The notes beneath the pieces were generated by a model. That model had not been told where the DNA came from. It ran no database searches and saw nothing but the letters and a program-made list of their open reading frames with translations. Position numbers and translations under genes: made by a program. DNA of 64,000 nucleotides, taken from assembly GCA_045803545.1 (NCBI GenBank), contig JBJMOW010000004.1, forward strand, positions 736,001 through 800,000, given 5' to 3'. Shown in pieces: positions 7,330-9,686 of the stretch. Origin of the DNA: Gemmatimonadaceae bacterium (GTDB lineage Bacteria > Gemmatimonadota > Gemmatimonadetes > Gemmatimonadales > Gemmatimonadaceae). Position 1 is the first letter of the stretch. Every line of letters begins with the position of its first letter.

Positions 7330-7393
7330 ATGTTACCGGTCGGTAACATGGCGCGCGCACCCCGATGTTACCGATCGGTAACATTTTTGTCAA
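7330..7393. promoter_or_regulatory. Two 20-bp TetR operators overlapping the efflux promoter
   Basis: ATGTTACCGGTCGGTAACAT (7330-7349) and perfect palindrome ATGTTACCGATCGGTAACAT (7365-7384); minus-strand TTGACA(7393-7388)-17-TAACAT(7370-7365). Confidence 0.85.
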
Positions 7394-7411: not shown

Positions 7412-8056
7412 ATGCAAACAGATATTCAGAAGAACGGCAGAAAAACGAAAGGGAAACGCAGCGAACGGTTGCCCGTGCGTGAGCGTATCCTCGTCGCCGC
7501 CGGCGATCTGTTTCATAAACAAGGCATCCGCGGGGTAGGCGTGGAGGCGATCGCGGAAGCGGCTGATACCAACAAGATGACGCTCTACCGTCACTTCGAC
7601 TCGAAGGACGAGCTCATCGCCGAGTGGGTGCGGGGAATGATCGCACACAAAGAGGATGAATGGAGCGATCTGACCGCCCATCACCACGGCGATCCACAGG
7701 GGCTGCTTCAGGACTGGAGTCGGCGGACCGCCGCCAAGCTCAAGGTCATGGAGGAGCGCGGCTCCGCGCTGGGGAACGCGCTCGCCGAGCTTCCTGACCC
7801 GGAGCATCCGGCGCGGCGTGTCATTCAGGAGTACAAGGCCCGAGAGCATAAGCGAGTCGTACGACTCTGCAAGGCCGCTGGTTTCCAGAATCCGGATCTC
7901 GCCGCCAATCTGTTCTGGATGCTGCTGGAAGGGGCGCACTCGTGTGTTCAGTGCGTCGGGATGCGCAAGTTCGGAGAGCATCTGGTGCAGCTCGTCGACC
8001 TGATGGTCGAAAACGCCAAGCAGCAAGAACGTGCTCCTTATCCGACTGCTCTCTGA
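7412..8056 (+). CDS. TetR/AcrR family transcriptional regulator
   Basis: HTH GVEAIAEAADTNKMTLYRHFDSKDEL; divergent from the pump. Confidence 0.93.
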   Translation: MQTDIQKNGRKTKGKRSERLPVRERILVAAGDLFHKQGIRGVGVEAIAEAADTNKMTLYRHFDSKDELIAEWVRGMIAHKEDEWSDLTAHHHGDPQGLLQDWSRRTAAKLKVMEERGSALGNALAELPDPEHPARRVIQEYKAREHKRVVRLCKAAGFQNPDLAANLFWMLLEGAHSCVQCVGMRKFGEHLVQLVDLMVENAKQQERAPYPTAL

Positions 8057-8195
8057 TCCATCTTTCGCTCGCCTCACAATAGATCGTCGTTCGGGCGCCC
8101 CCTGAATCGACATCGATTTGCAAGGATTTCTGACCCGCCGATCATTTGCGCCAAAAGGGCGATGAATTTTACGGCACCATTACAAGCGTTTTCTA

Positions 8196-8224
8196 TTGAC
8201 GGTCGCTGGCCCGGCCCATATCGT
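8196..8224 (+). promoter_or_regulatory. Sigma70-type promoter for a leaderless transcript
   Basis: TTGACG(8196-8201)-17-TATCGT(8219-8224), ATG 6 nt downstream, no SD. Confidence 0.65.
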
Positions 8225-8230
8225 CACCCA

Positions 8231-8329
8231 ATGACTTGTTTCCGCTTTGTCGTCTGCTGCTGCACCGCGGCGTGCGCGCCGGCCACCTGCGCGTGTCCGT
8301 GCTGCACCCGGTGTTGTGACGCGACATAG
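8231..8329 (+). CDS. Cys-rich leader peptide (putative attenuator)
   Basis: MTCFRFVVCCCTAACAPATCACPCCTRCCDAT*, 11 Cys in 32 aa; below the ORF-track cutoff. Confidence 0.8.
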   Translation: MTCFRFVVCCCTAACAPATCACPCCTRCCDAT

Positions 8330-8353
8330 CGGCTGACATCTGCTCTCGCGCAC

Positions 8354-8388
8354 GCCCCGGGCTCTCCAGGTCCGGGGTTTTTTGTTTT
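8354..8388 (+). terminator. Intrinsic terminator (attenuator) upstream of the carbonic anhydrase
   Basis: GCCCCGGGCT-CTCCA-GGTCCGGGGT followed by TTTTTGTTTT, ending 22 nt before the ATG at 8411. Confidence 0.85.
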
Positions 8389-8410
8389 ACCACTCTCCAA
8401 AGGACAGGTT

Positions 8411-9058
8411 ATGTCGAAAGTACTGGACGAAGTTCTCTCCGCGAACGCTGAGTACGTCAGCTCATTCGGATCGAAGGGCAACCTCGCTCTTCCACCCGCG
8501 CGTCGCTTCGCAATTCTCACCTGCATGGACGCCCGACTCGATCCCGCGAAGTACGCCGGACTCAGTGAGGGCGATGCACACGTAATTCGCAACGCCGGCG
8601 GCCGCGCCAGCGACGATGCCATCCGCTCATTGGTGATCTCCTACAAACTGCTCGGCACGCGCGAGTGGTTCGTCGTTCATCACACCAACTGCGGGATGGA
8701 ATTCTTTACCGATGAAGTGATACGGGGCCTTCTTTCGAACAGCCTCGAGACAGCAGAGCTCGGCGCCCAGGGTTTCCGCGATGTCGGCAAAGGACCGGGA
8801 TCAGCGGAAGCCCAGTTCATCGACTGGCTGACGATCAAGAACACGAGGCAGGCGGTGGTGGACGATGTCGCCCGGATTCGGCAGCACCCGCTCGTCCCGA
8901 AGAACATTCCGGTCTACGGCTACGTCTACGAGGTGAAGACCGGCAAGCTGGTAGAAGTCGAAGAGGCTACCCGCGCGGGTCGAGCCGAGGAGGCGCCGCG
9001 AGCGGTTCTAGCGGCTGACGTCAAGGTCCCGATTCAGGAGTCTGCGCTCAGTAACTGA
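8411..9058 (+). CDS. Beta-class carbonic anhydrase, clade D (COS hydrolase-like)
   Basis: CMDARLD, IRNAGGR, HHTNCGM Zn ligands, [11 protein letters not shown]. Confidence 0.92.
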
Positions 9059-9089: not shown

Positions 9090-9686
9090 ATGACAATTAC
9101 CCGCCCAATTGAGACGCATTCCCCTGAGCTGGAAGAGCGCTTCTTCGATCTTTCGATCGACCTGCTGTGCATGCTCGATTTTAACGGCTACTTCAAACGA
9201 CTGAGCCCCTCGTGGGAGCGTACGCTCGGCTTCACCCGCGAGGAGCTCATGTCGCGTCCATTCATCGAATTCGTTCATCCCGATGATCGCGAGCGCACCC
9301 TCAATCAGAACGCTGCCGTGAGACGAGGCGGCCAGGCCCTCGGCTTCGAGAATCGCTACCTACGTAACGACGGCTCGTTCCGCTGGTTCCGCTGGAATGC
9401 GACGTCTGATCCATCGTGGAGCGTTATCTACTCCGTCGCGCGCGACGTCACCGAGATCAAGCGGGCGGCGGAAGAACGCGAGCGCCTGGTTCACGAGCTA
9501 CGAACCGCGCTTGCCGAAGTGAAGACGCTGCAGGAGATACTGCCGATCTGTTCGTTCTGCAGAAAGGTGCGCGACGATGAGAATTACTGGGACACCGTCG
9601 AGAATTACGTGTCAGCGCATACGTCGACGTTGTTCAGCCACAGCATCTGTCCGACCTGCATGGAGATGCACTTCGAAGGTCAGTGA
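9090..9686 (+). CDS. PAS domain protein with C-terminal Cys/His (putative Zn-binding) module
   Basis: FVHPDDRE and ARDVTE PAS/PAC motifs; LPICSFCRKVR...FSHSICPTC. Confidence 0.85.
   Translation: MTITRPIETHSPELEERFFDLSIDLLCMLDFNGYFKRLSPSWERTLGFTREELMSRPFIEFVHPDDRERTLNQNAAVRRGGQALGFENRYLRNDGSFRWFRWNATSDPSWSVIYSVARDVTEIKRAAEERERLVHELRTALAEVKTLQEILPICSFCRKVRDDENYWDTVENYVSAHTSTLFSHSICPTCMEMHFEGQ

Follow-up and report, generated by a model that had tools for sequence, protein, structure and literature searches.

A cysteine-codon leader and a predicted switchable terminator upstream of a clade D beta-carbonic anhydrase gene in Gemmatimonadaceae

The window analyzed here, i.e., the whole stretch of 64,000 nucleotides from a Gemmatimonadaceae genome, harbors a beta-carbonic anhydrase (CA) family gene preceded by a short cysteine-rich ORF and an intrinsic terminator. 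Further upstream, a TetR gene (7412-8056) and a divergent RND efflux operon (7349 and below, minus strand) flank two copies of an inverted-repeat-like motif at 7335-7385 (TGTTACCG..CGGTAACA), which are likely to be TetR operators. On the other side, a lone PAS-domain gene (9090-9686) begins 31 nt past the CA stop codon and may share its transcript; it is not kept behind the orthologs. The features of the leader region are as follows.

8196-8201, + strand: −35 box of a sigma-70-type promoter (promoter scan); TTGAC and a 17-nt spacer are present in all 16 leader-bearing orthologs
8219-8224, + strand: −10 box (promoter scan), with the ATG 6 nt downstream here and 6 or 9 nt downstream in orthologs
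8231-8329, + strand: Cys-rich leader ORF of 32 codons with 11 Cys (orthologs, 27-33 codons with 4-11 Cys)
8265-8278, + strand: 5′ strand of helix 2, a pairing named in an earlier note; complementary to 8347-8360 in this genome only and not a conserved part
8273-8275, + strand: Cys15, the second well-kept Cys position, 12 codons before a conserved CGG codon in 12 of 16 leaders
8288-8290, + strand: Cys20, the conserved, predicted sensing codon, 7 codons before the CGG codon in 14 of 16 leaders and 10 before it in the two with a 3-codon insertion
8307-8313, + strand: region 2, the predicted antiterminator base (CCGG 8308-8311 with 8357-8360, G8313 with C8355; five pairs kept in 16 of 16)
8320-8350, + strand: post-stop hairpin, the predicted upper part of the antiterminator (8320-8324 with 8346-8350, 8328-8332 with 8340-8344)
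8354-8378, + strand: intrinsic terminator hairpin, −18.2 kcal/mol (terminator scan and folding)
8379-8388, + strand: terminator U-tract (sequence and scan), T-rich in all 16 leaders
8400-8404, + strand: Shine-Dalgarno-like AAGGA of the CA gene, outside the terminator and antiterminator helices
8411-9058, + strand: clade D (Cab-type) beta-CA family gene, 215 aa; PF00484 over cut-off, Cys-x-Asp and His-x-x-Cys zinc motifs (Cys38, His91, Cys94)

The ORF at 8231-8329 has the highest Cys count among the 18,151 ATG-started ORFs of 20-40 codons in the genome, the runner-up having eight. Scans confirmed the promoter with its spacer, the ORF, and the terminator with its U-tract where the earlier note had read them from the letters alone. 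Taken alone, the promoter-like and terminator-like matches are weak evidence, as the scans found two promoter-like sites against 0.4 expected and two terminator-like sites against 1.5 expected. No Shine-Dalgarno-like sequence was found before the leader ATG (8231), and the 6-nt gap between the −10 box and the ATG predicts a leaderless or nearly leaderless start; an in-frame upstream ATG at 8162 precedes the promoter. The terminator hairpin ends 32 nt short of the beta-CA gene. The leader peptide had no match in Pfam or NCBIfam, and a search of Rfam returned no match at gathering score or of fitting type, only three weak unrelated ones (E 0.14-4.6). Over the 16 leaders, TGT accounts for 53 and TGC for 44 of the Cys codons; the TGT share is high for a 60% GC genome with one tRNA-Cys(GCA) and may in part be imposed by pairing. 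Four of the 13 existing RNA runs were compared with the locus. Three pieces without a differing letter cover 8359-8599, 8414-8561, and 8407-8557, and no piece among all assembled contigs of the four runs bridges the terminator (31-letter rule) or covers the leader ORF.

The best solved relatives of the CA protein were 5ZTP, 6JQC (CafC), 1YLK (Rv1284), the COS hydrolase 3VQJ, and the CS2 hydrolase 3TEN. Similarity to clade D relatives extended across the whole domain (E 9e-42 to 3e-28), with the zinc ligands retained. With its Cys, Asp, His, Cys zinc site and clade D members as its nearest relatives, the predicted protein could be grouped into clade D. An alignment-free structure prediction gave a pLDDT of 39.5 and was set aside.

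The closest orthologs of the CA protein (80-84% identity) belong to Gemmatimonadaceae genomes. The protein was matched in 19 of 109 genomes of the genus, 15 of which, this genome included, carry the whole leader; the remaining matches are three divergent paralogs without a leader (72-74% identity) and a fragment without its 5′ end. Together with the leader of another Gemmatimonadota genome (L005), 16 distinct leaders were obtained. All of them share TTGAC, the 17-nt spacer, a −10 box, the ATG, Cys codons, CCGGTG near the ORF end, and the terminator, and the Cys-codon conservation that the earlier note had proposed to look for upstream of CA orthologs was found in every one. The distance from the ATG to the CGG codon takes five lengths (26-29 and 32 codons) and is always in frame. 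In a quick tree of 97 rows, the 16 CAs with a leader group together on a single branch (SH-aLRT 97), and the three paralogs that have no Cys leader fall elsewhere; these 16 sequences are close kin and not independent cases. As the flanking genes vary among the genomes, the promoter, leader, and CA gene appear to travel as a unit. The parts, their conservation, and their spacing are direct observations.

A covariance model of the leader (R1) gave 15 strong matches (80-113 bits) in the 109 genus genomes, all of them training loci, and none above 37 bits in 150 other genomes of the family; one Cys leader (L303, discussed below) was found among the 32 weak matches inspected. The genome itself holds no second leader of this type, and none was seen at the seven inspected loci of PAPS-reductase-family genes. 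In a class-wide sample of 401 genomes, a CA match at 1e-60 was obtained in this genome only. A pattern scan of metagenomes returned at least 119 stretches, with one true leader (L163) among the matches listed and the others chance matches.

The terminator helix was paired in 99.3% of 142 cells (16 sequences), with no change on both sides. In each ortholog leader, the stretch from CCGG at the ORF end to the terminator left arm folded as one long hairpin (−17.6 to −32.9 kcal/mol), the putative antiterminator. Of its 19 pairs, 82.1% of 302 cells were paired against 26-56% for slid partners, a comparison in which the antiterminator is favored because the structure was derived from the same 16 closely related sequences. 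Its five basal pairs are invariant and hence uninformative as to covariation, and CCGG can pair with itself and is frequent in GC-rich RNA. The stems of the post-stop hairpin, which is also compatible with the terminator, were paired in 86 and 77% of cells, and one of their pairs exchanges among A-U, G-C, and G-U in 16 of 16 leaders. As to helix covariation, which the earlier note had suggested as a check, the covariation score of the antiterminator was reached by 5 of 500 shuffles, but only three pairs change on both sides, a count reached by 154 of 500. A shared 1:2 anti-antiterminator or pause hairpin had no common register (3-7 of 8 pairs kept), and each leader folds some hairpin across its Cys codons and region 2. 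One fold of the window's copy pairs the leader 5′ end with 8396-8412. An RNAalifold consensus on the leader alignment, which contained the terminator and short hairpins without the antiterminator, was not retained.

The effect of ribosome position was modeled on transcripts cut before the terminator right arm, with a ribosome footprint of −15 to +12. These replaced an equilibrium folding of the whole leader, limited to the RNA ahead of the ribosome, in which the terminator had a probability of 0.85-0.98 at every position, because such folding is no test of a kinetic switch. At equilibrium, the terminator with the post-stop hairpin (−34.5 kcal/mol) is more stable than the antiterminator (−26.3 kcal/mol); therefore, control must be kinetic, and classical attenuators are under kinetic control. 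In the truncated transcripts, pairing of the left arm with region 2 averaged 0.58-0.85 with the A site at least five codons before the CGG codon (0.53-0.82 at the few earliest A-site positions) and 0.0-0.11 from four codons before it onward. With a stall at the conserved Cys, the left arm paired downstream with a mean probability of 0.80, compared with 0.36 in shuffled leaders and 0.06 with the ribosome at the stop codon. When the RNA behind the ribosome was blocked, left-arm pairing over three footprint sizes was 0.88-0.91 at the conserved Cys (at least 0.5 in all 16 leaders) and 0.23-0.32 at the stop (at least 0.5 in 3-5 of 16). When that RNA was left free, the left arm was paired at the stop as well (mean 0.60; 0.75 in this genome, via helix 2), so termination at the stop would weaken. 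In 6 of the 16 leaders, the window's own among them (9 of 25), at least 6 of 25 shuffles reached the observed stall pairing. The spacing is such that a stall is predicted to free the antiterminator strand and arrival at the stop to cover it, a prediction that depends on the RNA behind the ribosome being unavailable. In this folding, the sensing codons would be the middle ones (Cys20 and earlier, with Cys22 borderline) and not the distal Cys codons at which the earlier note had placed the stall.

It is proposed that the leader is a ribosome-mediated transcription attenuator which reads charged tRNA-Cys before the beta-CA gene, a reading to which we give a probability of roughly 0.85. The beta-CA gene is most likely turned on by the leader and its switchable terminator when this soil-type bacterium is short of cysteine. 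The transcript would begin with the ATG at 8231 or slightly ahead of it. When Cys-tRNA is sufficient, the ribosome would reach the leader end and cover 8308-8340, leaving the terminator left arm free, so that the terminator closes and an RNA of ∼155 nt is released. With Cys-tRNA scarce, the ribosome would stall at Cys20 or an earlier Cys codon, and the free 8307-8332 would pair with 8340-8361, forming a single long antiterminator ahead of the synthesis of the right arm; polymerase would then read into the beta-CA gene, as conservation and folding suggest. The wiring quite probably uses region 2, at the end of the ORF, and not the helices of the earlier note. The attenuator reading of that note stands insofar as a near-leaderless Cys leader would control a terminator before the beta-CA gene, for which the conservation and the separate tree branch of the leader-bearing CAs speak; the helices that it named are not supported.

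Cys leaders were also surveyed at other loci. Enough upstream DNA was available at 78 of 80 ortholog loci, and a leader was called at four or more Cys in eight codons. Ten of the 21 acidobacterial orthologs passed this threshold, against an expectation of 0.26 and none on the reverse strand, as did 1 of 52 orthologs from outside Acidobacteriota and Gemmatimonadota. A terminator of different sequence is present at five acidobacterial loci, namely, L024, L034, L075, and L078 (of the ten) and L069; folding gave a clear switch for L069, a partial one for L024 and L034, and none for L075 and L078. These five leaders lie ∼100-260 nt before the CA start, with the terminator left arm complementary to a GUGGG-type stretch a few codons past the last Cys, and judging from their sequences they represent a second leader family on the same gene. 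Six further acidobacterial leaders upstream of the CA gene (L011, L025, L027, L029, L049, and L056) have 3-5 Cys in a row and no U-tract terminator, and their control of the gene is possibly translational or Rho-dependent. Among 11 further CA loci of the family, the only Cys leader was L318 (G803), a 38-codon ORF with five Cys, a strong hairpin, and a poor U-tract upstream of a beta-CA ∼54% identical; this leader looks unrelated to the others, and its clade D gene is more distant.

A Cys-rich ORF and a terminator also precede a cysM-like gene (335 bits, cut-off 394) and a JAB-domain gene at L303 (1379-1605, G524). cysM-like genes were matched in 74 of 401 genomes of the phylum, and of 30 loci examined three had such a leader, with none on the reverse strand. 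A terminator and a competing stem lie before the cysM-like genes of L303, L343 (G198), L346 (G890), and L347 (G241). In these four leaders, the left arm paired ahead of the ribosome with a probability of 0.6-1.0 when the ribosome was at the last Cys codons, falling to 0.0-0.1 once it was at the stop; pairing behind the ribosome, computed for L303, was 0.58 at the stop. The four come from three Gemmatimonadota families and have three different sequences, with no Rfam match where searched; L343 and L346 look leaderless, and a Shine-Dalgarno-like sequence is present in L303 and L347.

Neither PAPS_reduct nor NIR_SIR was matched in the genome, which is 93% complete, and no gene passed the cut-off for cysE. 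An O-acetylhomoserine/serine sulfhydrylase and MetB were found over cut-off, and CysK-like, CBS-like, and cystathionine-lyase-like domains under it. Since no sulfate-reduction match accompanies the sulfhydrylase, H2S could feed Cys/Met synthesis here while sulfate could not, as far as the incomplete assembly tells. PAPS_reduct was matched in 12 of the 109 genus genomes (two of the 12, G454 and G455, and some of the 109 are unpublished genomes), in 1 of the 15 with the leader, and in none of five genomes with other leaders; the leader shows no special link to lost sulfate reduction because most of the genus is without both. A hairpin and U-tract lie just before the O-acetylhomoserine sulfhydrylase gene (G000:C4 1504401-1505666, minus strand; L247), where Rfam gave nothing at gathering score and a Cys leader was not seen; it is perhaps another sulfur-responsive attenuator. 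In the neighborhood of the CA genes, about 9 of 93 proteins are sulfur-linked (TauD, TauE, a Cys/Met PLP enzyme, three luciferase-like monooxygenases, an NMT1-like protein, SBP56, and PF03601), a number that has no background control and was not counted as evidence. In other bacteria, a Cys/Met PLP enzyme, TauD, TauE, SBP56, or an NMT1-like binding protein adjoins a clade D CA gene (upstream of the CA at L089 and L061; neighbors at L037, L048, L042, and L062), likewise with no background control.

Two alternatives bear on the attenuator itself. One retains a Cys attenuator with the wiring of the earlier note, in which 8265-8278 lies behind a ribosome stalled on the distal Cys codons and is thereby available for pairing with 8347-8360 (helix 2), while 8269-8278 with 8288-8297 (helix 3) acts as the anti-antiterminator. 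Both helices exist in the sequence as described: 13 of the 14 positions of helix 2 can pair (−26.1 kcal/mol in this genome), 10 of 13 pairs persist in the two nearest relatives, and folding predicts the helix when region 2 is covered, provided that the RNA behind the ribosome is free; helix 3 has 10 pairs, four of them G-U. In the other 13 orthologs, however, helix 2 keeps only 5-8 of 13 pairs, and over the 16 sequences 53.4% of its 208 cells were paired, less than the mean of the shuffles (54.8%). Helix 3 was paired in 60.6% of 160 cells, a value reached by none of 500 shuffles, yet 40% of its cells are broken. The ribosome-footprint folding that the note had called for gave no switch for either helix in this genome, helix 2 being populated at 0.99-1.0 with the ribosome at Cys24-29 and equally (0.96) at the stop, and helix 3 at 0.01 at most and thus not competing; helix 2 cannot tell starved from fed because it forms in both states, and it is region 2 pairing that separates stall from stop. 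Helix 2 also needs pairing around the ribosome, and a following ribosome stalled at Cys9-15 would presumably cover its strand. This wiring is therefore improbable, and helix 2 could be an addition peculiar to this genome by which sensing is extended to Cys24-29. Still less probable is the alternative, which the earlier note had raised itself, that the peptide, acting in trans, binds Zn like a metallothionein, or that zinc is sensed by the leader, with the terminator merely ending a small monocistronic gene. The 11 Cys in 32 residues and a downstream enzyme that binds zinc via two Cys and a His would fit it, as would the L303 peptide, which is metallothionein-like in look and has a Shine-Dalgarno site. 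Against it, the orthologous peptides go down to four Cys in a variable pattern with no family match, and His, Asp, and Glu make up only 12 of their 471 residues; the peptide is poorly kept, whereas the RNA pairing and the Cys-to-helix spacing are kept; and no second promoter-like site on the + strand lies between the terminator and the CA gene. The same leader logic before the acidobacterial orthologs and the four cysM-like genes points to cysteine and its supply, not zinc, as the signal.

The remaining alternative leaves the attenuation mechanism as proposed and concerns the role of the enzyme. Clade D includes known COS and CS2 hydrolases, with a fungal member supporting sulfur assimilation from COS (PMC10880591 and PMC8209446, in the parts available), and the fungal enzyme enabled COS as a sulfur source in E. 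coli (PMC10880591, same part). For the present gene, control by cysteine suggests that the enzyme helps the cell to gather sulfur rather than handle CO2, and the chances are about even that it is a COS/CS2-type hydrolase freeing H2S for Cys/Met synthesis in a cell without sulfate reduction. The wider proposal, which we hold tentatively, is that soil heterotrophs of Gemmatimonadota and Acidobacteriota have placed the clade D beta-CA under Cys attenuators whose sequences are unrelated, the reason being that the enzyme acts as a COS/CS2 hydrolase in sulfur starvation and supplies H2S for Cys/Met synthesis. It is also possible, if somewhat doubtful, that, although cysteine is sensed by the attenuator, the enzyme hydrates CO2 in the ordinary way or has another substrate, such as a thiocarbamate/thiocarbonate breakdown product, and is induced under sulfur or thiol stress for another reason. 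The high CA activity reported for Rv1284 of the same clade, in which no residue is known to predict the substrate (PMC12035519, available part), is in agreement with this, as are an atmospheric COS level of only ∼500 ppt (PMC8209446) and CA gene neighbors mostly unrelated to sulfur. Opposed to it are a second, canonical beta-CA encoded elsewhere in the genome, the COSase-like activity and very low CA activity described in the available account of CafC, which is among the nearest solved relatives, and the occurrence of cysteine leaders on this gene in two phyla.

Regarded as a mechanism, the switch is of the textbook kind, and the value of the leader lies in the label that it puts on the gene it would control. 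A Cys-starvation switch in a lineage mostly without sulfate reduction predicts that the enzyme supplies sulfur and is induced by cysteine limitation. If the enzyme is indeed a COS/CS2 hydrolase, this would give COS degradation a physiological role in heterotrophic bacteria and a part of the soil COS sink would depend on the sulfur status of microbes, not on CO2 metabolism. As far as the literature search showed, the leader is the first candidate regulatory RNA family of this kind for Gemmatimonadota, and the predicted attenuator is compact (∼190 bp including the promoter), small enough for in vitro work.

A literature search, with supplements and most subscription papers outside its scope, returned no cysteine-leader control of a clade D CA or carbonic anhydrase and no cysteine leader in Gemmatimonadota or Acidobacteriota. 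Nothing relevant was found on Rv1284, cysD, and cysteine. A 2010 attenuator survey from the Lyubetsky group reportedly may list cysteine cases. The available parts of PMC13236596, PMC13096801, PMC4833913, PMC2965389, and PMC3892789 hold nothing on this beta-CA gene or Gemmatimonadota.

Among known systems, the CA protein resembles the clade D beta-CAs (3VQJ, 3TEN, 6JQC, 1YLK, and the fungal COSases) in sequence and, by alignment, in zinc ligands. The polycysteine LL-sORFs of mycobacteria (Ms5788A and others) would share with the present leader the leaderless start, the Cys-codon sensor, and sulfur-related genes downstream. As the earlier note stated, they act mainly on translation, by Shine-Dalgarno sequestration, and Ms5788 is not controlled by termination, according to the text available of Canestrari et al. 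(10.1101/834739), in which, Table 1 aside, the word 'carbonic' is absent. Seliverstov et al. predicted mycobacterial Cys leaders without conserved terminator hairpins (PMC1262725, in part). In contrast, the terminator is conserved here and the Shine-Dalgarno site lies outside the helices, which is not the pattern of sequestration without a terminator. The novelty that the earlier note had claimed for an intrinsic-terminator version has to be trimmed, as the available part of Brewer et al. (2021; PMC8632094) already describes uORFC-8-2 before cysS in Rhodobacterales, a predicted Cys uORF with a U-run fitting an intrinsic terminator and a proposed read-through on Cys stalling. By that description, uORFC-8-2 has two tandem Cys at codons 14-15 and occurs only before cysS in Alphaproteobacteria, whereas the leaders here have 4-11 scattered Cys, a predicted near-leaderless start, and another phylum and gene. 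Leaderless leaders with U-tract hairpins (leuL2, trpL1, and ilvL) are described for Streptomyces lividans in the accessible part of PMC8079986. The closest likeness in design is to the classical attenuators (trp, his, thr, leu, pheA, and ilv), with which the locus shares a short leader ORF rich in one amino acid, a terminator with a U-tract between leader and gene, and an antiterminator that overlaps the terminator left arm and would exclude the terminator, here with invariant basal pairs and modest covariation. Unlike them, this leader would sense cysteine, has no fixed 1:2 protector helix that could be found, and precedes a hydrolase-type enzyme instead of a biosynthetic operon or synthetase. 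The proposed mechanism is classical, and what is new is this leader family, its phylum, and its target gene.
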